Of a DNA stretch of 64,000 nt, positions 1 to 15,479 are shown in pieces. Position 1 is the stretch's first letter, and every line of letters starts with the position of its first letter. The notes beneath the pieces are model-generated. The model did not search any database and was not told where the DNA came from. It saw only the letters and a list, made by a program, of their open reading frames with translations. The stretch spans positions 74,189 to 138,188 of the forward strand of contig CAZWJT010000006.1 of NCBI GenBank assembly GCA_964634935.1, given 5' to 3'. The translations under genes and the position numbers were made by a program. The stretch is from an uncultured Planctomycetia bacterium (GTDB lineage Bacteria; Omnitrophota; Gorgyraeia; Duberdicusellales; Duberdicusellaceae).

Positions 1-179
1 TTTTTACATACGAGACCGGGATATCCCAAGAGGATGGCGTTGCATATGGCAAGTGGGCGCTTACGTGGTTCAAGACGATCATACCAAAAACAACATCAGC
101 TTTTTCCCAACCTGCACGAAATAAAGAGCGTTTTCAATCTATCTGTATTGTTACAGAAAGCGGGCTGAGTGATTGTTTT

Positions 180-3100
180 GTGTATCCGGGCACGGCACTG
201 TTTTTGTCAGGATTTATTTTCTTGCTTTGGATGCTTTGGGCTACCCATCAGCCTCACGGTCCGCCGATCTTACTGCATTCTGACCAAACAAATCTTTCTG
301 TGCATCCAAGCGGAAATTTCATTCCTTCTTCAGTCCGCTTTCGTCTTGATAACTCCTTGCAGATTACCCGTCTTTATGAATATGTGCACTCGATGCGGCA
401 TTTATCCGGAGATCTCTCAAGACTCTTAAACCATATTCGCATTGGCAGCGTTATTGTTATGAAAATTTGTGAACAACTCGCGATGAAAAGGGAAGATGCC
501 GCTCTTGTCCGTGCCGCCTTTGCGCTTCATGATCTTGGAAAGATGCAAAACCAGGAACTATGGAATATTATTCTTTCCGATAAGACATATCCCCGTAAAG
601 ATCCGGATAACCCTGAACGTAGGCTCATTAACCAACATGCAAGATTTTCAGCTGAAATGATTCATGAATTTGGGATGGAAGTTGCTCCTGAGGTTATTTC
701 TTTGGTCCGACAGCACCATACTCCGAAGGAATTAGAGGGTCGGTTGCGCGTTTATGGGGAAATCATCTATTGGGCTGATGTTGTTGATGCCATGGTGGCT
801 AAGCGTTCTTATAAGATCAATCTTGGTACAAGTGATGATTGGGTTATTGAATCCATGGACGATTTGCGTCTGACACTCCAGAAACTCAGGGATTCTAATT
901 TTTCTTCTGCCCGATGTATTCATAAAGAGATTTATACCGCGCTCTGTAGGTTTATTGAAACAGAAGCATTTGCTGCTTTATACCCTCATGTTGATCTATC
1001 AGGGAAAAAACATATTTCAGTCGGAGAATCATCATTCGCGATGATCAACAGGATAGCTCCGTATTTATTTCAAGCTGTAATGCTCTTGCGCAATTTTAAG
1101 CTTGATGGTGTTATTACGCATATTTATATAACCGGTAGTTTTGTCACTGGGGGATGCAGTATCCCTCCCGATGACATTGACTTTGCCGTGAGCATTTCAA
1201 CGAGCCATTTCCGGTATCTCCCTTATTCAAACCAAACAGAGCGCATGGTCAAGGAATTGGAAGAAATTGGTCGTCAGGCACAAGTCAGGTTTCACTTAAC
1301 GCTTGATGCTTTTGGGTATGTGGTTTACCCCGGTCAAGAACTTTCCGTGACCGGACAGATAAGGAATCAAGTACTCGTTGACGCCATGCGAGAGCGCGGA
1401 CAAGATGCGGGGGTATTAATTGATCTAACCAACGCTGATATTGTAAATGGTGATTTTTTCATAGGCCTTTACCAAAAAATTGTAAGCCGCGGTATTGCCG
1501 GTTTAGAAGCATATAAGGCGCAGAGAAAGAATATATTGTTTTCACACTGCCGGATAAATTTAGAAATTATTTTCTTGGTATTTCTTTTTTGTTTCTTCCT
1601 TTTTGCGCACGGACCGAAGTCTGACGCGCATCCGAATTTTCTTTATAGAGCAGCAGAAGAATTAAAACAGTACCAGGCAGTATTAGGGGGGATTGGTCCT
1701 GCGGTCAGTATTTTTGGATCAGCTAGAACTAAAGAACAAGACCAGCAGTTTGCCTTCGCGCAAAGTTTAGCGGAAAGGGTATCCCGGGCCGGATTTTCTG
1801 TGATTACTGGAGGTGGTCCGGGAATTATGATGGCTGCTAACAGCGGAGTTGCTTATGGTAAATTATCGGTTGGCCTGAAAATAGATTTGGCGAAAGAACA
1901 AGTGTTGAATCCATCGGTAAATGCAGTTTTATATTTCAAATACTTTTTCGCCCGCAAAATGACTTTTATCACGGCAAGCGACGCCTTTCTTTGCTGTGTT
2001 GGCGGTTTTGGAACACTCGATGAACTCTTCGAAATTCTGGCGCTAAAAGACAGAGGGTATCTTGGGGATTTTCCGGTTATCTTAACAAACCGTAAGTTTT
2101 ATGATGGACTGATGCATCTTTTGCGAAAGCTTATTTCTTATGGTTTTCTGCGCGGAAGAATCAAGAATTTACTCTTTATCGAGGATGACCCTGAAAAGAT
2201 AGCAGGTTTACTTATCGATTCCGTTTCCCGGGTAAGGAAAAGCCAGAATAATATCGATATTGGAAGAATATTAGTTGAATTTTATCGTGTATTTGTCAAG
2301 CTTGGGCAATTAGGCCCAGCTGCGGGAATCGTCGGTTCGGAATTTATTACAAGCGAAAGTAAAAATTATTACAAAGCACGGCAAATTGCTGAACGTTTAG
2401 CCTTGGCAGATATTTCTCTTATTTGGCGTGGAGGACATGGTGTGGGAGCGGCCGTCTGGGATGGTTTTCAGTCAGCACGGAAGAAAGACCGGAGTGTGAT
2501 GGCAAAGGCTGTTTCTTTATGGATCAGTGAGCGTCCGAATCGCCGCTATCGAGCAACTGGTGATGTGCGGCTTGGATTTCACTATATGTTTGAACAAAAA
2601 ATAGCATTGGTGCGCCATGCGACCAAGGGGTTTATTTTTTTCCCTGGCGGCACTGGCACACTCGACGTGCTTTTTGAAGTTCTCTGTCTTTTGCAGACAG
2701 GGAAAATACCTGCCGTGCCGGTTGTTCTGGTTGACAGGAAATTCTGGGATCCGTGGGATAGGTGGTTTCGCCATGAGCTTGTTCCTCATGAAACTATCTC
2801 CGGAAATGATTTGGATCTTTATCAGATAACCGATAGTCCCCAAGATGCAATTGAGGCTATTTCTCAGGTTCATTACAAGGCACATGCTTTTTTCTGTCCT
2901 CCTTGGTTGGCTCTTATGGTATTCATTATGGTTCTCATATGGAGCGTAGGAAGACGTACGAGTGACCCAACGCATCGGTTGCATTGCCTATTTTCGGGCA
3001 TTCCAGTTTCCAGTACTTTCTTATTGAGTATCGTCGGGGTATTGTTTTTTCTTGGAATCTTTATTGTGTTTTATCGATTCCAAATGGTTCAGTGCAAGCC

Positions 3101-6100
3101 TCGTTCTAAGTTTTTTGAAAACCGCTTTGTGAATGCTCAGGGCAGATTTTTCATTCATCGCTACGGAAAAATAATTAAAAACAAGAAAGGGTATTTTACG
3201 GAGAGTGACCGGAAAGAGCTTTTGAGCTTTCGCGCCCTCTTTGGAGATTTGCGGTCTATAAAATATAGGGCTCGGCATTGTATTGTTTCAGCGAATCAAG
3301 TCTGCGCCTTACTGAAAGGCAAGGGATTTTTCGTGACGAAACGGACAATCTATGCTTATTATGTGCACCATGCGTTCTGCTCGGTGCGTCTGGGAGGAGT
3401 TGATTTTATTCTTGATCTTACTTCCGAGCAATTCGAAGGATATTGGGAAGATTTTGCTAACCGCCCGAAGTTTCTGGGATTGGTTCTAATTCCGGCAGAT
3501 GAGGTATTTGTTCAGAGAGATAAGTTTTTCTTTTATGTTCCCCAGGCCACTGCTTACAATGGTGTGTATGTGGTTTTTGATGCAGATGATTCAGGCCTTG
3601 AACACGGATATCTTGTTGTTTCTGTAGGATCAGAGGTATTGGAAATAAGGCCGCTGGGAGATCGAGATTTTACCAAATATGCTCGGGAGGATATTGATCC
3701 ATTGGTTCGCCAGAAAGCCAAGGAACAAATTCCAACCAGTCTAGAAAATGCGCATCCCGGCTCAGAGAAAACAGCTGTTTTTTGCCTATGGTCTTTTTCT
3801 GTATTCTTGGTTTGCGCGGGTCTCCTTTTGGTATTTTTACCGGCAAAACTGTTTGAGCGCCCGGACGGTATTTGTAATTTTTCAGTACGAAATACCCCCT
3901 ATAAAGGAGCCGTCATTATTATCGGCGGTTCTTCGGGTAGCTTTGATATTATTGAGGCGATCGTAAAAAAAATACGTAGGCCGCATCCGCCCATTGTTAT
4001 TTTAAAACACTGCATCGAACCTTATATTGTTCAGGAAATGATTGAGCGGCTCTCGCTTCGCGGGAAAATCATTGAGCATAACGAAAGGATAGAGCCTTCG
4101 TTTATTTATTTTGCGGTCGAAGGGCGCCATGTAAAATTTACCGAAGATGAATTCGGGTATCGTTTCTTACTTTCTCGACGTTCACAAAGCAGGCTCGGAT
4201 TCGTTCCTTCGATCGACAAGTGTTTTTTCTCCGCCGCAGACGTTATAGGAGAAAAAGTAATCGCTCTTATTTTGAGCGGTTGGGGTAATGACGGGGCGAG
4301 CGGTGTGTTTGTTTTGCGCCAGAAAGGAGCGGTTACTATTGCCCAGCATCCGGAATGTTCGCAAAGGCCGGATATGCCGCTTCACGCAATTTCTTCCGGT
4401 GGCATTACTCATATTTTAAGTCCCTTGGCAATCCGCGATCTTCTTATGCGACAGTCAAGTTCCGGTTTATCCTCCAGCTGTTCGGTTTTTCCTCCATTCG
4501 GATTATTGGTTTTAGTGATTTTTTTCTTGCTTACTCTAGGCAGCTTCGCGCAAAGAAAAGAGAATTATTTCCGAGGTGGCACGGTTGCCCGATCAGAAAC
4601 AATCAGCGCGCGAATCAAGCTGGCAATACAGCAGCGTAGCCTTACGGTTTCTGAATTCACAAAATGCCTTCATCGCCAAATGCGGATGATGGAGCGGGAT
4701 CCAGAAACTACCCCCGAAGCCGTCAGACGTTGGCTTACTGGAGAGCATCATCCGGATATCAAAATAATTCCTGCGTTGGCCGCGACATTAAAAGTAAGTC
4801 CAAGTTGGCTTGTATGCGGTTTGTCTCAACAAGAAGCAATGCGGCAGCCAGTGCTATTGCCAAATGAACAAGAAAAATCAGGATCAAGCCTCGGGAGGCG
4901 TATATTGATTTTACGGTGGATACAAGGAATCACTTCAGTTGAGTTTGCCAAGAAAACAGGAATGAGTCTTGGTAATCTCAACAATATTGAACAGCATCTC
5001 GCAACGTACCCTCGGCCAGCATACCTAGGAAAGATGGCCCAGGTTTTGGGCGTCAGCACTTCGATAATTCTTACTGGTTTTGAGCGCAGCCAGGTAATCG
5101 ATTATTTGCGATATGCCAAAGACAGGTTTCTGTTTCTCAGGTTATGCGCCGGGATGACCCAGGATGAATTATGGGAAAGGCTTGTTGACTCCTATGGGGT
5201 AGATGTCGAAGGAAGGACTACTGTTGCGCAATGGGAGCGCGGCGTGACGCCTCAAGATCTGCGGATACGAAAAGCTCTCAGTAATCTCTACGGGATTTCT
5301 TGGGCTCGTTTAAGCGCCTATAATCCAAGAGGCAGAAGACTCAGTGAATTTATGGAATTAGAAGCGGTGGCACGGATGCGTAACTATTTTGAGAAGATCA
5401 TTGATTCGAATCTTCCAGATTCTTCTATTGTGGTGCGGTTTCCGACGATCGTAAGCGATATTATCATGGCCGATGATCTTGAGTATGATATCAACCCCGT
5501 TGTGAATATGTTATTCGATTTGGTGGCGGAGAATACCGTAGGCGGAAGGGAGATTCGCTTAAGAAAGATAACCCACGCTTTAGATTTCTATCAGAAATTA
5601 TTTCTTTTGCGACCGGGAACCTGGAGATTGCGAGACGAGCGGGCAAAATATTTTGCGAGTGTTGTTTTAAAATCTTTTGTAAACAGGGTAAATCAAGCAG
5701 GGATTGGCAGTAGAGCAACAAAGAAGATAGCCGCCCAAATATTCTGGTCTGATATTGTTGAGTCATTAAGCGGAGGCAGCGGCAATAGGTGTGCAATAAA
5801 ATTTATTGAGGTCCAAAAAGAAAATCAACCATGGTTGAGCCGGAAAGATTTGATTGCCCGCACAGGAGTTTCGCAGTCTTTGCTCAACCGGTACGGGTTT
5901 TCAAATATTGCACTACGTTTGGGTTGGTCGTTGGCTGATTCAGATTCCGATACTCAAGAGTTCTTGAACGGGGCTCAAGGGTTTCGAAGGCGGATTTTTG
6001 ATTTTTACCAGAGGCATCGGCGGTTTCCCAAGAGAGAAAAAGGAGGTTTGCGTGAATCAGATATCTGGGTGATTGAGCTTTCAAAAGCGATGCTGGGAGG

Positions 6101-7598
6101 AAGTCTTGCTATGTTTCGGCTCAGGTTCTTTGAGGATTTTTCTTCAGAGATAAAACTATTCATCAAGCATGCCCGGCCGAGCGTCCAAAAACGCATGTAT
6201 GCAGAATTACTCCGGGTTTTACCATTTGACAGGGATGCTTTAGAATTTTCTTCTGTCGATAAAACTGAGCGGGCCAAAGATGAGGTGCGGATGCGGAAGA
6301 TAATCCCTGATTATGATACAAAGGTGAAAGAATATCACTGGTATGATTGCGCTACGCTTCGAGAACGGGGCATTCAGGATTTATCGACCGCCAGTGATCT
6401 TATCGTCAGTTATGCGGATTTTGGTTCGCTCTCGTCGAAGCAGCTTGCGCGCTTGTGGTTCGAAATGCGCAGGGGTAATACCATCGCTCGCAATTTTATT
6501 ATGGACTCAAACACTGGATTGATTATTTCGTCAGCAAGAGATATCTCTGGACGTTCCATGGCGCGGAATATCAGTCAGGCGGACTTACGCAATGAAGGAT
6601 GGTTTGGATTGCGTGTTGCCGCGGAACGATTTGATCCTTCTCGAGGTACAAAATTTTCTACGTATGCAATGTGGTGGATCATGCAAGCGCAAACAAGACT
6701 ATGTCTATATGGAGGAAGAACGATACGGGCAGATCCCGCCCTCGTCAATCGTTTTTATCGGCTCCAACAGAAAATGACTGAACTCGATAACGCTCCAGAG
6801 CAGCAGAAAGGCCGCAGGACTTACGCAATTATTTATGAAAAAACCAAGCGGGAATTTGAAAAATTACGCTGGTTCTTGCAGGGAGCGTTAAACACGAAAT
6901 CGTTGAATGATTCGGTGGGCTCTGATGAGGAGGGCACTTTGTTCTCGGAATTTGTTGAAGATGTTAAATCTGAGGATCCGGAAGATGCTGCAGGGGTGTT
7001 TGATGAGCGTGAATTTGTCAGAGATTGTCTTGCTCAAATACCAGATGAAAGAGATCGGCGGATTCTTGAGCTGCGCTATGGGGTAAAACCGCCTACTTCC
7101 GCAGAGTGGCAGATACTGCAAGAAAAAAAACCAAAGCTTGAATGCAATCCTTTCACCAGTTGGCCAAAGGGACGGGATCATCTGACTTTAGAGGAGGCCG
7201 GCTTAATTTATGGTATTACCCGCGAACGCATCCGGCAGGTTGGCAACAGAGCAGAAGATGTCTTTGCTGCTATCGTTTGTGCAAACCGGCGGCGGTTTTA
7301 CACAATAAAAGATTTGTCTGAAGAAAGAAATCTTGAATGTTTCTGTCCATTGCCGACGGTCATTGTAATCATTCTTTCATTATTTCTGGCGGCACAAGGA
7401 ATGTTTTTTACGGTTACAGAAGCATCATGCCAGCAGATTGCGCCATGGTGGAACCAGCGATCCGGAATGATGCATAGGAATATACGGGGGAAGGATTGTA
7501 ACCAATTTCTCAGGCGCAATAAGAGGGGTATCAGGTTGCCAGACAAAACACTTTATGAATTTTCCCTGGTGCCTGAGCATAAGCAGAAAAATAATTGA
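180..7598 (+). CDS. Giant multidomain signalling protein (at least 2472 aa; the frame stays open back to window position 3, so the true start may lie upstream of the window). Domain order: HD-GYP-like, minimal NTase, 2x LOG/SLOG, TM cluster, unknown domain, TM, CheB-type methylesterase, TM, 3-4 HTH_XRE, sigma-70 r2-r3-r4, C-terminal TM.
   Basis: Six-frame track shows one ORF of 2472 codons. My own translation of 3..179 in the same frame finds no stop. By-eye motifs: VHSMRH...ALHDLGK...RQHHTP...ADVVDAMVAKRSYK (HD-GYP family, GYP lost). ITGSFVTGGCSIPPDDIDF (GS-x11-DxD minimal nucleotidyltransferase). SIFGSAR...ITGGGPGIMMAANSG...SDAFLCCVGGFGTLDELFE and RGGHGVGA...FFPGGTGTLDVLFEVL (two LOG / Lysine_decarbox-like Rossmann domains). 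VIIIGGSSGSFD...PIVILKHC...LSGWGNDGASG...TIAQHPECSQRPDMPLHAI (CheB methylesterase, Ser/His/Asp present). Several XRE-like helix-turn-helix segments. IARNFIMDS...FSTYAMWWIMQAQTR and ILELRYGV...LTLEEAGLIYGITRERIRQ (sigma-70 regions 2 and 4). Confidence 0.6.
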   Translation: MYPGTALFLSGFIFLLWMLWATHQPHGPPILLHSDQTNLSVHPSGNFIPSSVRFRLDNSLQITRLYEYVHSMRHLSGDLSRLLNHIRIGSVIVMKICEQLAMKREDAALVRAAFALHDLGKMQNQELWNIILSDKTYPRKDPDNPERRLINQHARFSAEMIHEFGMEVAPEVISLVRQHHTPKELEGRLRVYGEIIYWADVVDAMVAKRSYKINLGTSDDWVIESMDDLRLTLQKLRDSNFSSARCIHKEIYTALCRFIETEAFAALYPHVDLSGKKHISVGESSFAMINRIAPYLFQAVMLLRNFKLDGVITHIYITGSFVTGGCSIPPDDIDFAVSISTSHFRYLPYSNQTERMVKELEEIGRQAQVRFHLTLDAFGYVVYPGQELSVTGQIRNQVLVDAMRERGQDAGVLIDLTNADIVNGDFFIGLYQKIVSRGIAGLEAYKAQRKNILFSHCRINLEIIFLVFLFCFFLFAHGPKSDAHPNFLYRAAEELKQYQAVLGGIGPAVSIFGSARTKEQDQQFAFAQSLAERVSRAGFSVITGGGPGIMMAANSGVAYGKLSVGLKIDLAKEQVLNPSVNAVLYFKYFFARKMTFITASDAFLCCVGGFGTLDELFEILALKDRGYLGDFPVILTNRKFYDGLMHLLRKLISYGFLRGRIKNLLFIEDDPEKIAGLLIDSVSRVRKSQNNIDIGRILVEFYRVFVKLGQLGPAAGIVGSEFITSESKNYYKARQIAERLALADISLIWRGGHGVGAAVWDGFQSARKKDRSVMAKAVSLWISERPNRRYRATGDVRLGFHYMFEQKIALVRHATKGFIFFPGGTGTLDVLFEVLCLLQTGKIPAVPVVLVDRKFWDPWDRWFRHELVPHETISGNDLDLYQITDSPQDAIEAISQVHYKAHAFFCPPWLALMVFIMVLIWSVGRRTSDPTHRLHCLFSGIPVSSTFLLSIVGVLFFLGIFIVFYRFQMVQCKPRSKFFENRFVNAQGRFFIHRYGKIIKNKKGYFTESDRKELLSFRALFGDLRSIKYRARHCIVSANQVCALLKGKGFFVTKRTIYAYYVHHAFCSVRLGGVDFILDLTSEQFEGYWEDFANRPKFLGLVLIPADEVFVQRDKFFFYVPQATAYNGVYVVFDADDSGLEHGYLVVSVGSEVLEIRPLGDRDFTKYAREDIDPLVRQKAKEQIPTSLENAHPGSEKTAVFCLWSFSVFLVCAGLLLVFLPAKLFERPDGICNFSVRNTPYKGAVIIIGGSSGSFDIIEAIVKKIRRPHPPIVILKHCIEPYIVQEMIERLSLRGKIIEHNERIEPSFIYFAVEGRHVKFTEDEFGYRFLLSRRSQSRLGFVPSIDKCFFSAADVIGEKVIALILSGWGNDGASGVFVLRQKGAVTIAQHPECSQRPDMPLHAISSGGITHILSPLAIRDLLMRQSSSGLSSSCSVFPPFGLLVLVIFFLLTLGSFAQRKENYFRGGTVARSETISARIKLAIQQRSLTVSEFTKCLHRQMRMMERDPETTPEAVRRWLTGEHHPDIKIIPALAATLKVSPSWLVCGLSQQEAMRQPVLLPNEQEKSGSSLGRRILILRWIQGITSVEFAKKTGMSLGNLNNIEQHLATYPRPAYLGKMAQVLGVSTSIILTGFERSQVIDYLRYAKDRFLFLRLCAGMTQDELWERLVDSYGVDVEGRTTVAQWERGVTPQDLRIRKALSNLYGISWARLSAYNPRGRRLSEFMELEAVARMRNYFEKIIDSNLPDSSIVVRFPTIVSDIIMADDLEYDINPVVNMLFDLVAENTVGGREIRLRKITHALDFYQKLFLLRPGTWRLRDERAKYFASVVLKSFVNRVNQAGIGSRATKKIAAQIFWSDIVESLSGGSGNRCAIKFIEVQKENQPWLSRKDLIARTGVSQSLLNRYGFSNIALRLGWSLADSDSDTQEFLNGAQGFRRRIFDFYQRHRRFPKREKGGLRESDIWVIELSKAMLGGSLAMFRLRFFEDFSSEIKLFIKHARPSVQKRMYAELLRVLPFDRDALEFSSVDKTERAKDEVRMRKIIPDYDTKVKEYHWYDCATLRERGIQDLSTASDLIVSYADFGSLSSKQLARLWFEMRRGNTIARNFIMDSNTGLIISSARDISGRSMARNISQADLRNEGWFGLRVAAERFDPSRGTKFSTYAMWWIMQAQTRLCLYGGRTIRADPALVNRFYRLQQKMTELDNAPEQQKGRRTYAIIYEKTKREFEKLRWFLQGALNTKSLNDSVGSDEEGTLFSEFVEDVKSEDPEDAAGVFDEREFVRDCLAQIPDERDRRILELRYGVKPPTSAEWQILQEKKPKLECNPFTSWPKGRDHLTLEEAGLIYGITRERIRQVGNRAEDVFAAIVCANRRRFYTIKDLSEERNLECFCPLPTVIVIILSLFLAAQGMFFTVTEASCQQIAPWWNQRSGMMHRNIRGKDCNQFLRRNKRGIRLPDKTLYEFSLVPEHKQKNN
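380..810 (+). other. HD-GYP-like phosphohydrolase domain (degenerate GYP motif) inside the giant ORF
   Basis: HS..H, HDLGK, HHTP and ADVVDAMVAKRSYK line up with the conserved HD-GYP blocks HDIGK / HHE.WDGSGYP / ADVFDALTS.RPYK; the GYP tripeptide is replaced (TPKELEG). Confidence 0.55.
1110..1450 (+). other. Minimal nucleotidyltransferase (Pol-beta superfamily) domain inside the giant ORF
   Basis: ITGSFVTGGCSIPPDDIDFAV fits the hG[GS]-x9-13-DhD signature. Confidence 0.5.
1700..2760 (+). other. Two tandem LOG/SLOG (PF03641-like, TIGR00730-like) Rossmann domains inside the giant ORF
   Basis: GGGPGIMMAANSG + CVGGFGTLDELFE (copy 1, about 1700-2110) and GGHGVGAAV + FPGGTGTLDVLFEVL (copy 2, about 2415-2760). 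Confidence 0.6.
3905..4440 (+). other. CheB-type methylesterase/glutaminase-like domain, flanked by predicted TM helices, inside the giant ORF
   Basis: IGGSSGSF (cf. IGASTGGP), PIVILKH (cf. PIVIVQH), LSGWGNDGASG (cf. LTGMGRDGAAG), TIAQHPECSQRPDMPLHAI (cf. TIAQDEATCVVYGMPREAI). Hydrophobic stretches precede it (AVFCLWSFSVFLVCAGLLLVFL) and follow it (FGLLVLVIFFLLTLGSFA). Confidence 0.6.
4590..5330 (+). other. Three consecutive XRE-family helix-turn-helix modules inside the giant ORF (a fourth HTH-like segment sits near 5830-5910)
   Basis: Repeated pattern of the form L....R...G.T..E.A...G.S...L...E.G (e.g. RSLTVSEFTKCL..., ILRWIQGITSVEFAKKTGMSLGNLNNIEQ, LRLCAGMTQDELWERLVDSYGVDVEGRTTVAQWERG). 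Confidence 0.45.
6400..7260 (+). other. Sigma-70 family module (regions 2, 3 and 4) at the C-terminal part of the giant ORF
   Basis: Region 2.x: NEGWFGLRVAAERFDPSRGTKFSTYAMWWIMQAQTR (cf. FSTYATWWIRQAI). Region 4: RRILELRYGV...LTLEEAGLIYGITRERIRQVGNRA. Confidence 0.6.
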
Positions 7599-7647
7599 TC
7601 CGTGTATTTTGATATTATTTAGTGCTATATTCAAAATGTAAATTATA

Positions 7648-8436
7648 ATGGTACCAGAGAAAACAGTGGATGAGATAAAAGGTATAAACTCGAAACGGGG
7701 TTTTTTAACTACCCCGGATCAGGTAGATATTTCTTACGTTCATTACTCAAGTGGCCGGAGGAAAAAAGCGGTAGTTATTGCTCACGGTTTTTTTAATAGT
7801 AAGAATTCCCCGCTTCTGCAGGTTCTAAAAGACGCGCTTATCTCTGAGTATGATGTGATTTTGTTTGATTTTCGGGGGCATGGAGAAAGTTCGGGGCTGT
7901 TTACCTGGACTTCCCATGAGTCGCTCGATCTACGAGCGGTTTTGCAATATGCGCAGAGTCATTATTCTATCCTTGGTCTCATTGGTTTTTCTCTGGGTGC
8001 TGCAACGAGCATTAACGTGCTTGCGAAGTATGATTGTGTTCAAAGTTTTATTTCCATCAGTGCCCCTGGCAGTTTTTGGGGTATCGATTATCATTTCTGG
8101 GCTTTGAATTTTGAGAACGATCTTTTCTATACTTTTGGCAGAGAAGGAAGAGCGGGGAAAGGAGTGCGTCCTGGGCCATTCTGGCTTAGAAAAGAAAAGC
8201 CGATCAAGAATATAGAAAGTATCCATTGTCCTGTTTGTTATATTCACGGAGAAAAAGACTGGGTCATCTTACCATATCATTCCCAGAGATTATTTTCTAG
8301 AACGAAAACCCAGAAGGTATTTCACGTTATTCCTAATGGTTTTCACGCTGAGTATCTATTGCGCCAGCAGCGTGAAATAATCATAGATTCCGTATGCCGT
8401 TGGCTTACCGAAACGCTTCATGAAGGAGGTGTATGA
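7648..8436 (+). CDS. alpha/beta-fold hydrolase
   Basis: AVVIAHGFFNS...RGHGESSG...GFSLGA (nucleophile elbow GxSxG). A TATAAT sits 7 nt upstream at 7636-7641. Confidence 0.7.
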   Translation: MVPEKTVDEIKGINSKRGFLTTPDQVDISYVHYSSGRRKKAVVIAHGFFNSKNSPLLQVLKDALISEYDVILFDFRGHGESSGLFTWTSHESLDLRAVLQYAQSHYSILGLIGFSLGAATSINVLAKYDCVQSFISISAPGSFWGIDYHFWALNFENDLFYTFGREGRAGKGVRPGPFWLRKEKPIKNIESIHCPVCYIHGEKDWVILPYHSQRLFSRTKTQKVFHVIPNGFHAEYLLRQQREIIIDSVCRWLTETLHEGGV

Positions 8437-8774
8437 TGGAGGGGTTTGGAGTAGAAAAACGCATGTTTCATCGGTTTCCTTGCGCTATGGGCAGTGTGTC
8501 CGTACGTAACCTGCAGCGTGATTTCGAAAGCAGCGGTCGATGTGTTGATCTTTCTGCTGGCGGGATCAGCTTTGAAACTGAGAAGGTTTTTTTCCCGGGT
8601 GATCCTGTCGAAATCTGGATGGATTTAAAGAACAACCTTTCCTCTTTCCAGCAGGGCGGGAAAGTAGTTTGGGCAAAGCGTATGTATCCTGAAAAATTCC
8701 GGATTGGTATTGAGTTTCAGGAACCCCAACTTACCAAGATTCATCAATTGGTTGAAGGTATTTGTAACTCGTAA
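8433..8774 (+). CDS. PilZ-domain protein (c-di-GMP receptor family)
   Basis: RMFHRFP ... DLSAGGISFE resembles the PilZ RxxxR ... D/NxSxxG motifs. Its ATGATGG start overlaps the upstream stop (translational coupling). Confidence 0.55.
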   Translation: MMEGFGVEKRMFHRFPCAMGSVSVRNLQRDFESSGRCVDLSAGGISFETEKVFFPGDPVEIWMDLKNNLSSFQQGGKVVWAKRMYPEKFRIGIEFQEPQLTKIHQLVEGICNS

Positions 8775-8791
8775 TCTGAAATATTAAGTTA

Positions 8792-8819
8792 TTGAATTAA
8801 ATAATACTTATGGTATAAT
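8792..8819 (+). promoter_or_regulatory. Sigma-70-like promoter TTGAAT-16-TATAAT upstream of the ABC transporter operon
   Basis: ttgaat(8792-8797) ... tataat(8814-8819), followed by AAGGAGG and ATG 8872. Confidence 0.4.
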
Positions 8820-8871
8820 TTCCACCATATTGTCTACCCTCTAATAGCCATCTAGCATGAAGGAGGACGGG

Positions 8872-10167
8872 ATGAGAAATATCTTCTCTGTGGCGGTAAG
8901 TTGTATAATTTTACTGTGCGGATGTTCATCGGAACAACCCTCCCAAAAATCCTCAGCTCGAGAAATAACAGTATGGTATTGGATGGTTGATCGTAAGCAG
9001 GCCTTTGAGGAATTAGCCAAGAAATATGAACAGGAAACCTCAGTCAAGGTCAATTTTAAACTGTTTTCTTCAGATATCTATGCGCAAAAAGTCATTGCTG
9101 CCGCCCGGGCAGGAAGTCTTCCGGAAATTTTCGGCATTCTTGGTGAAAAGAAGATGCTCGCCTCTTTTATCAAAGCCAACCATATTTTAGATTTAACGCC
9201 CTATATGCTGAAGGATTCTTCGGCGTGGAAGAAACGTTTCTATCCTCAAGTTTTAGGGCAGAATTCTTTTGAGAAAAATAATATATACGAAGTGCAGGAA
9301 GGAATTTATGGCGTGCCGATAGATATGATGAATATTCAATTTCTCTACAATCGGGAATTGTTTCAAAAGGCGGGGCTTAACCCGAATCAGCCTCCGGTTA
9401 CTTTTGAAGATTTCATTCAGTATGCTCGTTTGGTGAAGGAGAAGACAGGGGCAAAAGGGTTTGCGTGCGGTTGGGGAGAAGTCTGGCTTATGTCATGTGT
9501 TTTTTCTGAATGGGCGATGAATCTCCTCGGAGAAGATATTTTTCATAAAACGATTCAAGGAAAAATACCGTATACGAGCCCTCAATGGATTGAAGTATTT
9601 AGTCTTTTTGACAGACTGCGCCAAGAAGATGTGCTTCTGCCTAATATTGTAAGCACTATTAATAAAGAAGCTGAGCAGTATTTTGCTGACGGGAAATCCG
9701 CGTTTTCATTTGACGGCAGCTGGTGTATTAACATCTATCAGGAGTTAAATCCCAAGCTTTCCTACGGAGCGTTCCCTTTGCCGATCGTATCAACAAAATT
9801 TCCAATAAGGATCTGGGGCGGTGCTGGCAGTTCTTTTATGGTAAGTGCCATAAGTCCTCAAAAAGAAGAAGCGGTGCTGTTTCTTGCATGGCTGACAAAA
9901 CCAGAACAGCAAAAATATCTTATCCAATCTACCCGGAATCTTCCGGCGATTCAGGGATGCGAAGATACTTTTTCTGAGGCAATGAAGGAATTTGCCAATG
10001 ATGCCGATAAAATCACCCATCCTAATATCTGGCCGAAACAGGAAGATTCCCGGGTAACCGAGGTGATTATTAAGGGGTTGCAGCAGATTGTGATGGGCAT
10101 CACCACCCCGGAAAAAGTCGCTGAAGAAGTCCAGAAAGCAAAGGAGCGGATTGAGAAACAGCAATGA
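8872..10167 (+). CDS. ABC transporter substrate-binding lipoprotein (sugar family)
   Basis: Lipobox LLCGCSS after a hydrophobic N-terminus; size about 430 aa; followed by two MalF/MalG-like permeases; RBS AGGAGG before ATG 8872 (the ORF track starts at an earlier ATG, 8857). Confidence 0.8.
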   Translation: MRNIFSVAVSCIILLCGCSSEQPSQKSSAREITVWYWMVDRKQAFEELAKKYEQETSVKVNFKLFSSDIYAQKVIAAARAGSLPEIFGILGEKKMLASFIKANHILDLTPYMLKDSSAWKKRFYPQVLGQNSFEKNNIYEVQEGIYGVPIDMMNIQFLYNRELFQKAGLNPNQPPVTFEDFIQYARLVKEKTGAKGFACGWGEVWLMSCVFSEWAMNLLGEDIFHKTIQGKIPYTSPQWIEVFSLFDRLRQEDVLLPNIVSTINKEAEQYFADGKSAFSFDGSWCINIYQELNPKLSYGAFPLPIVSTKFPIRIWGGAGSSFMVSAISPQKEEAVLFLAWLTKPEQQKYLIQSTRNLPAIQGCEDTFSEAMKEFANDADKITHPNIWPKQEDSRVTEVIIKGLQQIVMGITTPEKVAEEVQKAKERIEKQQ

Positions 10168-11051
10168 GAAAAGACCTGCTTAAGGAAACAACGATAAGCT
10201 ATTCCTTTATCTTCCCCGCGGTATTTTTGTTCACTATTTTCTATATCTACCCGCTTTTCTATACGCTTTGGCTGAGTTTGCACCGGGGGGATGCTATTTC
10301 GTATATGAAGTTTGTTGGTCTTGCAAATTTTCAGGAAATACTTTTCCAAGACAAAGACTGGTGGCGTTCGATTTATAATGCAGGATTTATTACATTTTGG
10401 GCATTAACATTCCAGAATATCCTTGCGTTTGTTTTGGCGCTCGGCGTCGATAAGGCAATACGTCTGGGTAAACTTTACCGGGTTGTTTTTTTTATTCTGC
10501 CAATTCTTTCTGAGATTATCATCGGGCTTCTGATGCGTGAGATTCTTTTGTCTGAGCCGGGCATTTTCAATAAGCTTCTGTCAAACGTTGGGCTAGGTTT
10601 TGTTATCCGCGATTGGCTTAGTTCAGGAAATGTTCTGCTTACTACAGCTCTTGTGCATTGTTGGAAAGGATTTGGCTGGGCATTTGTGATTTTTCTCGCA
10701 GGTTTACAATCAATCCCCGCACAGCTCTATGAGGCAGCTCGAGTTGATGGAGCAAACGCTTGGCAAAGTTTTCTGAAGGTGACCTTGCCGCTTATGATTC
10801 CGGTAACTGCTATGGTTTTTGTTTTGACTATCCTTGGTACTATGCAGGCATTTGCCATGATTCTTGCTTTAACCCGAGGCGCAGGAGGTCTCACTGAGGT
10901 TCCGGTTATGCGCATCTACAACCATCTAAAAGACGGACAAGTCGGGTTTGCATGTGCTGAAGGGGTTATCCTTGGGGCACTCCTTGTTTTTGTTTCGTTC
11001 GTGATGTTCAAATTCTCGAAAGCGGTGCGAGAAAAGTATGGTGTATTATAA
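10164..11051 (+). CDS. ABC transporter permease (MalF-like, sugar)
   Basis: Six-TM profile; EAA-like loop AARVDGANAWQSFLKVTLP. Confidence 0.85.
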   Translation: MRKDLLKETTISYSFIFPAVFLFTIFYIYPLFYTLWLSLHRGDAISYMKFVGLANFQEILFQDKDWWRSIYNAGFITFWALTFQNILAFVLALGVDKAIRLGKLYRVVFFILPILSEIIIGLLMREILLSEPGIFNKLLSNVGLGFVIRDWLSSGNVLLTTALVHCWKGFGWAFVIFLAGLQSIPAQLYEAARVDGANAWQSFLKVTLPLMIPVTAMVFVLTILGTMQAFAMILALTRGAGGLTEVPVMRIYNHLKDGQVGFACAEGVILGALLVFVSFVMFKFSKAVREKYGVL

Positions 11052-11877
11052 GGCAAAAAAAATAGCATTACTTGTCATTATTCATACATTTCTTTTGAGT
11101 GTGGCTTTAAGCTGCGTCTATCCGCTTGTCTGGATGATTAATGCATCGTTCAAAACCGAACATGAATTTCGGCAAGATCAAGGTCTTTCTTTTGCTCAGG
11201 GTTTCAATCTTTCCAACTATGGAACTGCGTTGCGCGAAGGGAATCTCGGGATCAATTTTCTCAATAGCGTTTTTTATACATTTATAACTGTTACTTCCAT
11301 TGTATTTGTTTCTGCTCTTGCAGCATACGCATTCTCGCGTCTTAAATTTCCCGGGAAAAATATTCTTTTCGGAATGTTCCTTGCGGCAATGATGATACCA
11401 CTACCTGCCGGGTTTGTTCCAGTCTATATTTTGCTCAACAAGCTTCATCTTGTAAATAGAATTGGGTATGTTTTTGCAATGGTCAATATGGGGCTTTCCT
11501 TAAGTATCTATCTTTTGAAGACTTTTTTTGACCAGCTTCCTTCGGCGCTTGAAGATGCTGCCAGGATTGACGGATGCGGACATTTTGGGGTCTGGTGGCA
11601 TGTTGCTTTGCCGCTTGTCCGGCCAGCGTTAGCAGTAGTGGTTATTTTTAATGCGCTCACAGTTTGGAACGAATTTGTGCTTGCCTCGCTTATGTTTAAT
11701 AGTGAAACGCTCATGCCGCTTCAGGTTGGTTTGATGGAATTCTATAATCGGAATGTTATCCAGCATACATTACTTATGGCTTCGCTCACGATCGGGGCTG
11801 TTCCGATAATCCTTGTATATCTGAAGATGCAGAAACAGATTATCAAGGGTATTACCCAGGGAGCTTTGGTAGGATGA
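11038..11877 (+). CDS. ABC transporter permease (MalG-like, sugar)
   Basis: EAA loop DAARIDGCGHFGVWWHVALPLVRP; overlaps the upstream permease. Confidence 0.85.
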   Translation: MVYYKAKKIALLVIIHTFLLSVALSCVYPLVWMINASFKTEHEFRQDQGLSFAQGFNLSNYGTALREGNLGINFLNSVFYTFITVTSIVFVSALAAYAFSRLKFPGKNILFGMFLAAMMIPLPAGFVPVYILLNKLHLVNRIGYVFAMVNMGLSLSIYLLKTFFDQLPSALEDAARIDGCGHFGVWWHVALPLVRPALAVVVIFNALTVWNEFVLASLMFNSETLMPLQVGLMEFYNRNVIQHTLLMASLTIGAVPIILVYLKMQKQIIKGITQGALVG

Positions 11878-14162
11878 AGGAACTTTTTTCTTTAATACAT
11901 TGTCTAAGAAGTAGAATGATAAAGCAATGCGTGTTTATTGTGGCTTGTTTTCTGGTGTTTTTACCAGCGCTTCTTGCTCAGTCTGATTCTTCGGAATATC
12001 TTACAAAAGCTTGGGAAGCGCTGGGAAAGCGTAATTTTGAAGAAGTTGCACAGTTGACTGCGCGCTGTGCCCAAGAATTTGGCCCTCAGGCTGATTTGCT
12101 TGCGCAAGGTATGACGAAAATACCTGAGCAGGAGGAATCAAAATACAAGGTATTGAATGATGTCGCAGTGTGCTATTTTGTTCAAGGCGAGTCTTTAATG
12201 CGCCAAGGGAAAATTGAAGAGGCAAAGGAGGTTTTTCGAACACTTATCGGGAAATACCCCTATGCATCTGGTTGGGATCCGCGCGGTTGGTTCTGGTCAG
12301 TAAAGGAGAAGGCGGAGATCACTCTCACTAAACTCGAGAAAGGCGTGATTGAAGAGGACAATATTGAGAAAAATATTGTTATCACGCAGATTACCCTTGC
12401 TGATCCGGGAGCTTCACTGCCAATTGAATATGAGAAATTTGGTCAATTCAAAGGGGTTGGGACAAAAGACTATGAGTTTATGGTTACTGATATGGAGGGT
12501 TTAGTGAAGGCTGCGGGGGAAGGCGTTTATCCAAACTCGACCTCGGTACGCTATGATCCAGAGTTTGTGCGGATGAAAAATAACAAGGAATTGCAAGCAA
12601 AGCATTGGGATATTTTGAATGGCAGGGATTTGAAGAAAGCGTTCTATATTTGGAATATTTGCGGAGAGCCAGCGGGCATTAAACAGTTTTATATCGGAGA
12701 TCTTCTTGAACGGAGTGGTCTTATCGAACAAGCAGTCAAAGCGTACTATGCCTGTCTTGTATTTTTTCCTCGCACCTACGGTTGGACATATTGGCATACA
12801 CCGTGGTATATAGCTGAAGCAGCTCTTGCCCGTATTGAGTATCTATTAAGTACTTTCCCGCATCTTGGTTTAAGACTTGAAGGGGCTTCGGTAAAGATTG
12901 TAAACGGTTTTGACTACGATGTTTCAAACGATGTTTTTGTTATTAATCCTGGTAAGATTGTGCGAAGCGAATCTTTGAATTCTGATATTCGTAAGAAGCT
13001 GGGAGCTGTTCAGAAGAGCGTTGGTACAACGGTGCGTCTTGTACAGTATGAATCAGGCGATTGGCAGCTTTTTGTCCACGATAAACCGTTTATTGTTAAA
13101 GGCATTACATATGCTCCGACAAGGGTAGGAGAGAGCCCGGATGAGGGTACTCTTGCGAATTGGACAGAGCAGGACACAAATAAAAACGGACTTATTGATG
13201 GTCCATTTGATACCTGGGTTGACAAAGATTATAATGGAAAGCAGGATCCTGGCGAGGAAATACAAGGTGATTTTAAGTTACTCAAAGATATGGGGGTCAA
13301 TGCATTACGGGTATACCATCAACCAGCAGAGCCTAATAAAAAACTTTTTAAAACTCTTTACGAAAATTATGGTATAATGGTTATTATGGCTGATTTCCTC
13401 GGAAAATATGCGATTGGAAGTGGTGCTTCTTGGTCCGAAGGAACAAACTATTCCGACTTAAAACATCAAGAAAATATGTTGAGTTCTGTTCGAAAAATGG
13501 TTCTTGAGTACAAAGATGAGCCCTATATTCTTTTTTGGTTGCTCGGGAATGAAAATGTTTATGGGGTTGCCTGTAACGCGAACAAAGATCCGGAGAGCTT
13601 CTTTAAATTTGCGAACAAGGCAGCGCAACTGATTAAAGAGCTTGACCCTACGCGTCCGGTGGCAATTGCCAGCGGTGATGTTTTGTATCTTGATATTTTT
13701 GGGAAACACGCACCCGATATTGATATTTTTGGTACGAATGCTTATCGGGGTAAATATGGTTTTGGTTTCATCTGGGATCAGGTAAAAGAATTTGCCAATA
13801 AGCCGTGCTTGATTACTGAATATGGTGCTCCAGCCTATGGAGAGGGTTATTCCGCTCAAGAAGCTGAAGATTTCCAGGCGGAATATCACCGTGCTAATTG
13901 GGCTCATATTATGCGCAATTCTTGTTGTCAAGGAGCGGGAAACGCCTTAGGAGGGATTGTTTTCGAGTGGCTTGATGAATGGTGGAAGGCTTATGAGCCG
14001 GCATACCATGACAGAAAAGGTCTTTTTACCGGGCCATTCTTAGATGGTTTTATGCACGAAGAGTGGCTTGGGCTTGTTTCTCAGGGTGATGGAAAAAATT
14101 CCCCGTTTTTAAGAAAATTAAGAAAAGCATATTTCACCTACCAGAATATCTGGAAAAACTGA
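11874..14162 (+). CDS. Secreted TPR-containing protein with C-terminal clan GH-A-like TIM-barrel glycosidase domain
   Basis: Signal peptide; KGITYAP...NALRVYH...LLGNENVYG...ITEYGAPAYGE...FEWLDEWWK; paralogous to the 15480..16706 product. Confidence 0.6.
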   Translation: MKELFSLIHCLRSRMIKQCVFIVACFLVFLPALLAQSDSSEYLTKAWEALGKRNFEEVAQLTARCAQEFGPQADLLAQGMTKIPEQEESKYKVLNDVAVCYFVQGESLMRQGKIEEAKEVFRTLIGKYPYASGWDPRGWFWSVKEKAEITLTKLEKGVIEEDNIEKNIVITQITLADPGASLPIEYEKFGQFKGVGTKDYEFMVTDMEGLVKAAGEGVYPNSTSVRYDPEFVRMKNNKELQAKHWDILNGRDLKKAFYIWNICGEPAGIKQFYIGDLLERSGLIEQAVKAYYACLVFFPRTYGWTYWHTPWYIAEAALARIEYLLSTFPHLGLRLEGASVKIVNGFDYDVSNDVFVINPGKIVRSESLNSDIRKKLGAVQKSVGTTVRLVQYESGDWQLFVHDKPFIVKGITYAPTRVGESPDEGTLANWTEQDTNKNGLIDGPFDTWVDKDYNGKQDPGEEIQGDFKLLKDMGVNALRVYHQPAEPNKKLFKTLYENYGIMVIMADFLGKYAIGSGASWSEGTNYSDLKHQENMLSSVRKMVLEYKDEPYILFWLLGNENVYGVACNANKDPESFFKFANKAAQLIKELDPTRPVAIASGDVLYLDIFGKHAPDIDIFGTNAYRGKYGFGFIWDQVKEFANKPCLITEYGAPAYGEGYSAQEAEDFQAEYHRANWAHIMRNSCCQGAGNALGGIVFEWLDEWWKAYEPAYHDRKGLFTGPFLDGFMHEEWLGLVSQGDGKNSPFLRKLRKAYFTYQNIWKN

Positions 14163-14233
14163 ATGCCAAGATATTGATTGCGAAAGAGGAAGAGTTGTTA
14201 CGCAGAATACATAGGCAAAAAGAAGGGGGTAGT

Positions 14234-15406
14234 ATGAGAAAAATAATTTCATTGAGTCTGGTTTTGTTCTTGTGCAGTATCGGGTCGCTTTTTGCTCAGG
14301 CAGTAAGCCCAGAAGGCGCACAAGATGTAAAGAAGTTCGATGTGTACACGGATAAGGCTTCGCCATCGAACCATTACGCTCCAAGCGGATGGATGGGTGA
14401 TGTGGGCGATCTTTCTCTTGATGATCAGAATATGGAAAGTCCTTATTCTGGTTCTACCGCAATCAAAATCACCTATTCGGCAAAAAGAGTTCAAAGCAAA
14501 GGTTGGGCAGGAATCTACTGGCAGAATCCGGCGAACAACTGGGGTAACCGCAAAGGCGGTTTTGATTTAACCGGATACAATAAACTTATTTTCATGGCCA
14601 AAGGTGCCCAAGGCGGAGAGGTGCTTTCTAAGGTGAAAGTTGGCGGTATTGGAGCAACGGGCGATGTTCCTTATCCTGATTCAGCAGAGAAAGAGTCAGG
14701 ACCGATCCAGCTCACCAATGAGTGGAAAGAGTATGTCGTGAATCTCACCGACAAAGACCTTTCTTATATCAGCGGGGGATTTGCTGTTATTTTTGAGGCC
14801 GACCAGAATCAAGCAGGCGCAGAAATATTTTTAGACGATGTTGCCTTTGTATTTGACCCGGACTTAAAAGCTGAAAAGAATGAGATTTCCTTTCCTTTCT
14901 ATATTTATTCAGACGGAGGGTCTTTGGATAACCATTTCATTCCTTCCGGATGGATGCCGGCCACAGCAGCACAAGACATCAAGTTTAACCAATACGAGAA
15001 GACCGCTCCTTACTCTGGAACGAGCGCCATCCGTATTGATTACAAAGATGTTTCTGGTACTCGCTGGGCAGGAATCTACTGGCAGAATCCCGCAGAAAAC
15101 TGGGGCGCCAAAGATGGGGGCATTAATCTTACCGGAGCAACAAAGCTTACTTTCTGGGCTCGCGGAGAAAAGGGCGGAGAAAGAATAGAAGAAGTCAAGG
15201 TAGGCGGTATTATGGGGCAGTATTCTGACTCAGATTCCGCTGGCATTGGTCCAGTTGTGCTCACGAAAGAGTGGAAACAATATACGATTGATTTACGCGG
15301 CAAAGATTTAAATTCAATCATCGGTGGTTTCTGTTGGGCGACAAATACCGACGTAAATCCTGAAGGAGCGACATTCTATTTTGACGAAATAAAATACGAG
15401 AAATAA
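14234..15406 (+). CDS. Secreted protein with two tandem about 165-aa carbohydrate-binding-module-like repeats
   Basis: Signal peptide MRKIISLSLVLFLCSIGSLFAQA. Internal duplication: SPYSGSTAIKITYS...WAGIYWQNPANNWG...KVGGIG versus APYSGTSAIRIDYK...WAGIYWQNPAENWG...KVGGIMG. Confidence 0.7.
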   Translation: MRKIISLSLVLFLCSIGSLFAQAVSPEGAQDVKKFDVYTDKASPSNHYAPSGWMGDVGDLSLDDQNMESPYSGSTAIKITYSAKRVQSKGWAGIYWQNPANNWGNRKGGFDLTGYNKLIFMAKGAQGGEVLSKVKVGGIGATGDVPYPDSAEKESGPIQLTNEWKEYVVNLTDKDLSYISGGFAVIFEADQNQAGAEIFLDDVAFVFDPDLKAEKNEISFPFYIYSDGGSLDNHFIPSGWMPATAAQDIKFNQYEKTAPYSGTSAIRIDYKDVSGTRWAGIYWQNPAENWGAKDGGINLTGATKLTFWARGEKGGERIEEVKVGGIMGQYSDSDSAGIGPVVLTKEWKQYTIDLRGKDLNSIIGGFCWATNTDVNPEGATFYFDEIKYEK

Positions 15407-15412
15407 TAAACG

Positions 15413-15460
15413 GAAGGCCCTCGGTAGAAGCTTTTTCTACCGGGGGCCTTTTCTCTGTTT
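15413..15460 (+). terminator. Rho-independent terminator
   Basis: GGCCCTCGGTAGAAgctttTTCTACCGGGGGCC hairpin followed by TTTTCTCTGTTT. Confidence 0.65.
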
Positions 15461-15479
15461 ATGCATAAACTATAAGTGT

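Follow-up and report, generated by a model that had tools for sequence, protein, structure and literature searches.

The DNA considered here is a window of 64,000 nucleotides (the whole stretch analysed) from contig CAZWJT010000006.1. It opens with a giant open reading frame (ORF) in which a CheB-type catalytic domain without a receiver domain lies between hydrophobic segments, next to a module that joins helix-turn-helix (HTH) domains to an RpoD-like sigma factor. This CheB module is a genuine, structurally intact and constrained CheB-family catalytic domain with its catalytic triad. With moderate confidence we regard it as an esterase or deamidase that would act in trans, its substrate being a methyl-accepting protein whose gene lies outside the window; the activity, the kind of substrate and the trans action are what we infer. 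The position of the module between hydrophobic segments beside the HTH-sigma module is probably a product of the gene-joining habit of the lineage and not of new chemistry.

All features of the giant ORF described below lie on the forward strand, and amino acid numbers refer to the ORF as listed (2472 residues), whose length is a minimum only. The CheB module occupies 3900..4454 (amino acids 1241-1425). Within it, the Pfam profile CheB_methylest (PF01339) matches amino acids 1246-1420 (nucleotides 3915-4439) with an E-value of 2e-29 and a score of 103 bits against a cut-off of 24. The match extends over profile positions 1-172 of 174, uninterrupted by gaps or breaks of frame, and the NCBIfam CheB models match the same stretch. 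A phmmer search of the PDB finds CheB of Salmonella (1CHD, 1A2O), Pectobacterium (6YMZ), and Thermotoga (3SFT), with E-values between 6e-20 and 1e-15. The fold agrees with this assignment. An AlphaFold2 model of the module, computed from a two-sequence alignment, has a mean predicted local distance difference test score (pLDDT) of 78.4 and a predicted template modelling score of 0.77, and its core is confident. When the model is compared with the PDB by Foldseek, the strong matches are CheB catalytic domains only, including 1CHD (E-value 1.5e-16, TM-score 0.82). The nine best PDB matches are all CheB, with TM-scores of 0.79-0.83 save for 7ESG (0.70).

Counted along the alignment with Salmonella CheB 1A2O, the catalytic residues are Ser1251 (codon 3930..3932; the third residue of GGSSGS), His1277 (codon 4008..4010; the histidine of ILKHC), and Asp1371 (codon 4290..4292; the aspartate of GNDGASG), which correspond to Salmonella S164, H190, and D286, respectively. 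When about 145 CheB-family domains taken from an exhaustive search are aligned with MAFFT, the three columns hold Ser, His, and Asp in 130, 131, and 133 sequences. The initial annotation had recognized the domain from its signature blocks and its Ser-His-Asp triad, and had named a PF01339 search and conservation of the triad in homologues as checks. The profile match, the PDB alignment, the family alignment, and the Foldseek comparison all bear out that recognition, and the triad residues are the majority residues among the homologues. Some of the blocks are altered. Compared with the family consensus, QHMPP reads KHC[IV]EP, HRPSVDVLF reads GFVPSIDKCF, TGMG reads SGWG, and [FY]GMP reads PDMP, both here and in the one close relative of the module described next.

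That relative, L003, is a contig of 280 kb (CAZRVK010000003.1) labelled 'uncultured Planctomycetales' from an independent metagenome-assembled genome (MAG), and it is 64% identical to the window sequence over 1132 amino acids. It is the only relative in which the CheB module is found as well. The CheB of L003 matches PF01339 with 115.8 bits and keeps the triad, in the motifs GGSTGS, KHC, and GDDGA. Homology between the two begins five residues before the CheB core (YKG...) and runs unbroken through the linker and the HTH-sigma module. Downstream of the L003 giant ORF stand genes for a PilZ protein, a solute-binding protein, and a permease, equivalent to window 8433-11051. Because both the CheB-linker-HTH-sigma block and these downstream genes match, the two loci are orthologous. 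The CheB core is 53% identical between window and L003, with a proportion of nonsynonymous differences (pN) of 0.31 and a proportion of synonymous differences (pS) of 0.74, which is saturated. The values are about 25%, 0.47, and 0.71 for the linker between CheB and HTH-sigma, and 65-75%, 0.16-0.23, and 0.76-0.85 for the HTH-sigma module. CheB, linker, and HTH-sigma are orthologous in the window and L003 and are under purifying selection.

The placement of the domain between hydrophobic helices inside the giant ORF, as first described, needs to be qualified. In the window, both flanks are present. The N-side segment spans 3777..3833 (amino acids 1200-1218, VFCLWSFSVFLVCAGLLLV; Kyte-Doolittle mean over 19 residues 2.53), and the segment that separates CheB from HTH-sigma spans 4485..4541 (amino acids 1436-1454, VFPPFGLLVLVIFFLLTLG; Kyte-Doolittle mean 2.44). 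L003, the sole orthologue, also has a hydrophobic stretch at the place of the CheB/HTH-sigma linker, but the N-side segment is absent at the equivalent place.

Past the end of the giant ORF, the gene order PilZ, ABC solute-binding protein, permease is kept between window 7648-11877 and L003 18925-21956. In L003 about 2000 extra residues, carrying alpha-amylase and methyltransferase modules, stand between sigma and PilZ. An alpha/beta-hydrolase is encoded by a free-standing gene in the window and by a module inside the giant ORF in L003. It seems that modules can both enter and leave the giant frame.

The giant ORF itself spans 3..7598, with at least 2531 codons and a stop codon at 7596-7598. 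It holds no in-frame stop in 2531 codons, against 87-158 stops in each of the five other frames. The initial annotation was right that a giant ORF is present; its 2472-residue ORF is not complete, and the frame runs off the 5' edge of the window, since no stop occurs between nucleotides 3 and 180. The 59 additional N-terminal residues encoded there (window 3-180) resemble the tail of another module, which is followed by a hydrophobic linker (amino acids 1-22 of the listed ORF). By codon-usage score, the frame of the giant ORF is the best over its full length, dipping at the linkers, and scores lower (about 0.12) than the ordinary genes of the window (0.21 +/- 0.04).

Several trivial explanations of so long a frame were considered. 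The worry that the region could be an assembly artefact did not hold up, because the block of CheB, linker, and HTH-sigma recurs at an orthologous locus in L003, an independent MAG contig, and there too PilZ and ABC-transporter genes come after it. Together with an artefact, a chance ORF is ruled out by the open frame in five independent contigs and by the orthology of the L003 locus. An alternative genetic code is ruled out as well: even the strictest code leaves the frame open, and the neighbouring genes end in TAA, TAG, and TGA. Separate genes with internal starts find no support: there is no in-frame canonical start at the N-terminus of CheB, and an AAAGGAG motif upstream of I1246 is not conserved in L003. 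Promoter-like and terminator-like sites do not exceed the shuffled expectation. The openness of the frame in five contigs and the conservation, as peptide, of a linker motif in one relative (see below) lend indirect support to translation of the giant ORF as a single polypeptide.

The relatives of the giant ORF bear on why CheB stands where it does. Exact look-ups of the window's own proteins in large sequence collections, and a first scan of genomes, gave no match. Amino acids 960-2100 were used as query in an exhaustive HMMER search, and an alignment of the HTH-sigma part then served for scans of genomes and metagenomes. The CheB part matched only generic CheB-family proteins, at 28-39% identity; a word-indexed search with it gave one distant match, and a metagenome scan with patterns of the CheB clade gave none. 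The HTH-sigma part gave five strong matches (P0002-P0006), 41-51% identical over the matched stretch, all of which are fragments of giant ORFs, and the metagenome scan with its alignment found one locus, cut at the start of its contig. In all, an HTH-sigma module of about 930 amino acids, 37-69% identical, occurs in at least six contigs, and where flanks are available it lies in giant ORFs between hydrophobic segments. The module is located at 4575-7337 in the window, about 9900-12700 in L003, 10001-12718 in L004, 2632-5325 in L005 (the same as L002), 4171-6432 in L006 (the same as L001), and 99-2792 in L008. L004 and L006, both labelled Candidatus Omnitrophota, are 44% and 37% identical to the window; L005, labelled 'Clostridia', is 45% identical, and L008, a metagenome contig, 46%. 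The open frames of the relatives extend over at least 6272, 5170, 3415, and 2154 amino acids.

What is joined to this HTH-sigma core differs from contig to contig. In L003 the modules are an alpha/beta hydrolase, a trypsin-like peptidase, a Methyltransf_4 domain (upstream of CheB), an alpha-amylase, and an MTS methyltransferase. They are HAD, REC, PCMT, and GNAT in L004 (PCMT follows sigma in L004/P0006), Pta and AckA in L005, and a PPDK-like module in L001. The other four contigs that carry an HTH-sigma core are more distant and lack CheB. Positions 1-2040 of L005 encode a full-length phosphotransacetylase and acetate kinase head to tail, then a hydrophobic segment and HTH-sigma, in one frame of at least 3415 amino acids.

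The linkers themselves appear to be translated. The frame-2 translation of L004 (nucleotides 2-15511) contains six copies of a motif of about 36 amino acids, LLLAIAGIAxLEIIASSFGAPGAGVACAxAPIAAG, placed between unrelated modules at amino acids 458, 759, 1490, 2075, 2366, and 4265. Ten pairwise comparisons among five of these copies yield 87 synonymous codon positions, 120 with a changed amino acid, and 153 identical ones. Because synonymous differences are many, the linker is conserved as a peptide and is not a DNA repeat. The shape of the motif, helix-GAPGAG-helix, points to a hairpin or to a site of recognition or cleavage.

In our favoured account, the lineage joins full-size copies of normally separate genes into one frame via hydrophobic linkers of about 20-40 residues, with a set of modules that turns over fast. 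Since the module content turns over and includes complete housekeeping enzymes, fusion is weak evidence of functional coupling. The suggestion that CheB could demethylate or deamidate a partner domain of the same protein is accordingly not supported: the HTH-sigma core is found joined to Pta-AckA, PPDK-like, HAD, REC, PCMT, GNAT, amylase, or methyltransferase modules. The CheB module would hydrolyse gamma-glutamyl methyl esters, or deamidate glutamine, on a protein whose gene lies in another part of the genome, either a chemoreceptor-like protein or another methyl-accepting protein. Canonical CheB is held in check by its receiver domain, which obstructs the active site as long as it is unphosphorylated, and the catalytic domain by itself has a higher activity than the unphosphorylated full-length protein. 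Pfam finds no Response_reg match anywhere in the giant ORF, and the gap between the upstream hydrophobic segment and the CheB core is only about 25 residues. Because the inhibitory receiver domain is missing, the module would not be gated by phosphorylation and would be constitutively competent. The flanking linkers would hold it at the membrane, or would permit its release from there.

Receiver-less CheB domains outside chemotaxis are not rare. The best 150 representatives contain 163 CheB domain matches: 29 are in proteins of less than 260 amino acids, 28 in proteins of more than 450, and the remaining 106 in proteins of 260-450 amino acids, the size of receiver-containing CheBs. P0001, which adjoins CheR in a histidine-kinase cluster (see below), is among these matches.

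Several observations weigh against the trans-acting esterase. There is no che, MCP (methyl-accepting chemotaxis protein), or CheR gene in the 64 kb. The adjacency of CheB and HTH-sigma is kept in one close relative, L003, which could also mean functional coupling. The clade-specific changes in the CheB blocks may mean that the substrate specificity differs. The portion of the ORF seen is far below the 10,000-residue threshold of the published catalogue of 916 giant proteins, and the database labels of the relatives disagree (two Omnitrophota, one 'Planctomycetales', and one 'Clostridia'), so that placement in Omnitrophota is indirect. Lastly, if all hydrophobic segments were single-pass and the chain intact, CheB and HTH-sigma would come to lie on opposite faces of the membrane. 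This arrangement is implausible. Counts of flanking charges around the segments are contradictory. The linkers could instead be hairpins or re-entrant, as the two-part motif of L004 suggests, or else the chain could be cut. A sigma factor within a membrane-threaded giant ORF is hard to square with function unless it is released.

How far the chemotaxis machinery is absent bears on the next explanation. No CheA, CheW, CheR, CheY, CheD, or MCP was found by Pfam in the ORFs of at least 150 amino acids, in eight smaller ones, or in the remainder of the giant ORF, nor by eye in the other small ORFs of two gap regions. The scans of the window ORFs agree with the initial annotation that CheA, CheW, CheR, and MCP genes are lacking, and its term 'orphan' holds for these 64 kb, which is a statement about the window and not about the genome. 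It is unlikely, although worth considering, that the module is an ordinary CheB of chemotaxis or type IV pili, with a che or pil-chp cluster elsewhere in the genome, which was swept into the giant ORF and whose receiver was lost or is separately encoded. Its best matches are bona fide receiver-containing CheBs; their 28-39% identity is ordinary for CheB catalytic domains compared across phyla. The intact triad and fold and the PilZ gene just downstream of the giant ORF also fit. A preprint on magnetotactic bacteria (10.1101/2022.07.08.499144) that names both chemotaxis genes (CheA, methyl-accepting proteins) and Omnitrophota is a weak lead. However, the window has no che genes and the giant ORF no receiver domain, the changes in conserved blocks hint at altered specificity, and the words 'chemotaxis' and 'flagell' are absent from the main text of a broad survey of Omnitrophota genomes (PMC10066038).

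Somewhat more doubtful is regulation in cis, in which CheB would demethylate or deamidate its own polypeptide (most likely HTH-sigma or the module just upstream) and the Glu/Gln state would control a membrane-tethered sigma factor. Such regulation would account for the contiguity of CheB, linker, and HTH-sigma, which is orthologously kept in the window and L003. Some of the related giant ORFs do include protein methyltransferase modules: in L003 a Methyltransf_4 domain lies upstream of CheB, and in L004/P0006 a PCMT domain follows sigma. A precedent for CheR-type methylation in a sigma-factor pathway is the action of RsbM on RsbK in the sigma-B pathway of Bacillus cereus (PMC12848376). Yet CheB is found in only one relative, and the four other contigs with the HTH-sigma core carry unrelated modules in its place. 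At 64% identity, L003 is so close to the window that the adjacency may reflect no more than synteny. Upstream of CheB the two carry non-homologous modules, and Pfam finds no methyltransferase module in the part of the giant ORF within the window. Neither the giant ORF nor the L003 ORF has a methylation motif of the MCP-type consensus, which is a weak test, as only 0.09 and 0.21 occurrences are expected by chance. An elaboration of cis action, in which CheB, linker, and HTH-sigma (perhaps with the upstream module) would form a self-contained membrane-tethered transcription switch, with demethylation or deamidation in cis followed by cleavage in the Pro/Gly-containing linkers that releases the RpoD-like sigma, is improbable; if true, it would be a mechanism of sigma-factor control without a described counterpart.

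That CheB is an inactive relic, a decaying passenger that has lost its enzymatic function in a fast-evolving giant ORF, is the faintest prospect. In its favour, the giant ORF has a lower codon-usage score than ordinary genes (about 0.12 versus 0.21 +/- 0.04), pN is higher for CheB (0.31) than for the sigma module (0.16), and searches of very large databases turned up no close relative other than L003. Against it, the three catalytic residues and the motif blocks around them are identical in the two lineages, although synonymous sites are saturated between them, the profile match is full-length without gaps or frame disruption, and the AlphaFold2 model is confident for the core.

Around CheB, the giant ORF is a chain of modules. 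Pfam places an HD domain at amino acids 90-205, a weak match to the nucleotidyltransferase-like DUF6932 at 304-386, and two copies of LOG/TIGR00730 at about 508-885. These two copies ('lysine decarboxylase-like', SLOG) stand in tandem at window 1704-2834, after HD and DUF6932, and the set has a nucleotide-signalling flavour. Directly upstream of CheB lies a module without a family match (3072..3776, amino acids 965-1199). It has no Pfam match even at an E-value of 10, no sequence match in the PDB, and no relatives in two homologue searches, one of them word-indexed; a single-sequence AlphaFold2 model of it has a pLDDT of 37.7 and is unusable. This module and the one at the corresponding place in L003 (8621-9298) are not alignable (BLAST E-value 29). 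A Cys...HH...D pattern reminiscent of papain or transglutaminase-like hydrolases, seen by eye in both, has no statistical support (the same E-value of 29).

Downstream of CheB, the HTH-sigma module (4575..7337, amino acids about 1466-2386) consists of three XRE-type HTH domains, a helical region of about 400-450 amino acids, and sigma-70 regions 2-4. Pfam matches are HTH_3, Sigma70_r2, and Sigma70_r4; RpoD/RpoS-like NCBIfam matches are all far below cut-off. Over the module, identity is 37-46% with P0002-P0006 and 64% with L003. For a defence-system reading, PADLOC gives only weak and partial matches (MzaA-like for the sigma part). A hydrophobic segment by Kyte-Doolittle (7338..7394, amino acids 2387-2405) follows sigma and leads to a tail of 67 amino acids and the stop codon; in P0006/L004 a hydrophobic linker likewise comes directly after sigma region 4. 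In total, Kyte-Doolittle windows of 19 residues reveal seven hydrophobic segments of about 20 residues in the 2531 amino acids, located between modules. In the window, a cysteine stands just before or at the start of five of the seven linkers, against 0.19 expected (linkers at amino acids 459, 903, 934, 1200, 1436, and 2387 among them). As a general signal this was dropped, the count in L003 (3 of 14, against 0.17) being read as unenriched.

Elsewhere the window is ordinary diderm chromosome: it encodes BamA, OmpH, LpxD, LpxC-FabZ, LpxA, LpxI, DnaB, EF-G, PurH, and others, and these ordinary genes use all three stop codons. Over positions 1-64000 almost all genes are on the forward strand and the GC skew is positive in every 2-kb window, which is consistent with a single replichore and a strong co-orientation of its genes.

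The biochemistry of this CheB appears ordinary; it is the setting that is unusual. A receiver-less CheB shares a frame with a complete RpoD-like sigma factor, DNA-binding domains, and nucleotide-metabolism enzymes, with hydrophobic linkers between them. The interest lies mostly in the phenomenon of giant ORFs and less in CheB chemistry. Some of the modules can work only in the cytoplasm, which sharpens a question about giant ORFs of the Omnitrophota type: is the product one protein threaded through the membrane, or a polyprotein from which free enzymes are cleaved? The CheB module and the sigma module, both small and amenable to assay, offer probes for this question. For the biology of chemotaxis, the module is one more CheB catalytic domain used without the phosphorylation switch and apparently without nearby receptors.

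Among known systems, the closest enzyme is CheB of Salmonella (protein-glutamate methylesterase / protein-glutamine glutaminase; 1CHD, 1A2O; PF01339), with which the module shares the fold (TM-score 0.82), the triad, and a full-length profile match. In contrast to it, the module has no N-terminal receiver, no che neighbours, and altered blocks, and is set in a giant ORF between hydrophobic linkers; canonical chemotaxis CheB in general has both the receiver domain and che neighbours that are missing here. A receiver-less CheB is also known from histidine-kinase clusters, represented by P0001 (locus L007). It likewise consists of the catalytic domain alone, is 30-31% identical to the module, and has the same starting point of the fold. 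There, however, CheB is a separate gene that adjoins CheR and (hybrid) histidine kinases, whereas the window has neither CheR (PF01739) nor a kinase, and its CheB is not a separate gene.

The RsbK/RsbY/RsbM system of Bacillus cereus sigma-B (PMC12848376) is another case of chemotaxis-type modification enzymes outside chemotaxis, in a sigma pathway. In that system the methyltransferase acts on a separately encoded kinase, whereas neither a kinase nor a methyltransferase nor an anti-sigma component turned up here, and the analogy is a lead only.

The giant ORF fits a kind already described, the multi-enzyme giant ORFs of Omnitrophota, although its assignment to that phylum is only indirect. Giant ORFs occur in most classes of Omnitrophota (PMC10066038). 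Giant proteins of this phylum are described as containing many unrelated enzyme domains and numerous transmembrane helices, and it is suggested that embedded peptidases may cut them (10.1101/2023.11.21.568195); the 'multi-enzyme' class has about 2% transmembrane residues and a signalling and regulatory domain community of methyltransferase, GNAT, HAD, and HD, and the giant richest in transmembrane segments has about one helix per 370 residues (10.64898/2026.06.07.730766). The ORF described here is likewise very long and is tiled by seven non-overlapping domain types (HD, DUF6932, LOG/SLOG, CheB, HTH, and sigma regions 2 and 4). It resembles the Archaeovorin type (West-Roberts et al. 2023) or class 1 (Nielsen and Lui 2026) in its tiling by unrelated domains (with methyltransferase, GNAT, HAD, and HD in the relatives) and in having a hydrophobic helix every few hundred residues. 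It differs in size, about 2.5 thousand amino acids being seen here and 3.4 to more than 6.3 thousand in relatives, against a catalogue threshold of 10 thousand. CheB and sigma are not mentioned in the main texts of 10.1101/2023.11.21.568195 and 10.64898/2026.06.07.730766 (nor is methylesterase) or in one supplementary file of the latter. A CheB module directly upstream of an embedded RpoD-like sigma factor in such a giant ORF is not mentioned in the papers searched. A further difference is that the giant ORF of this window carries regulators of the cytoplasmic type, namely sigma-70, HTH, LOG, and CheB, in place of adhesion or glycan-degrading domains.

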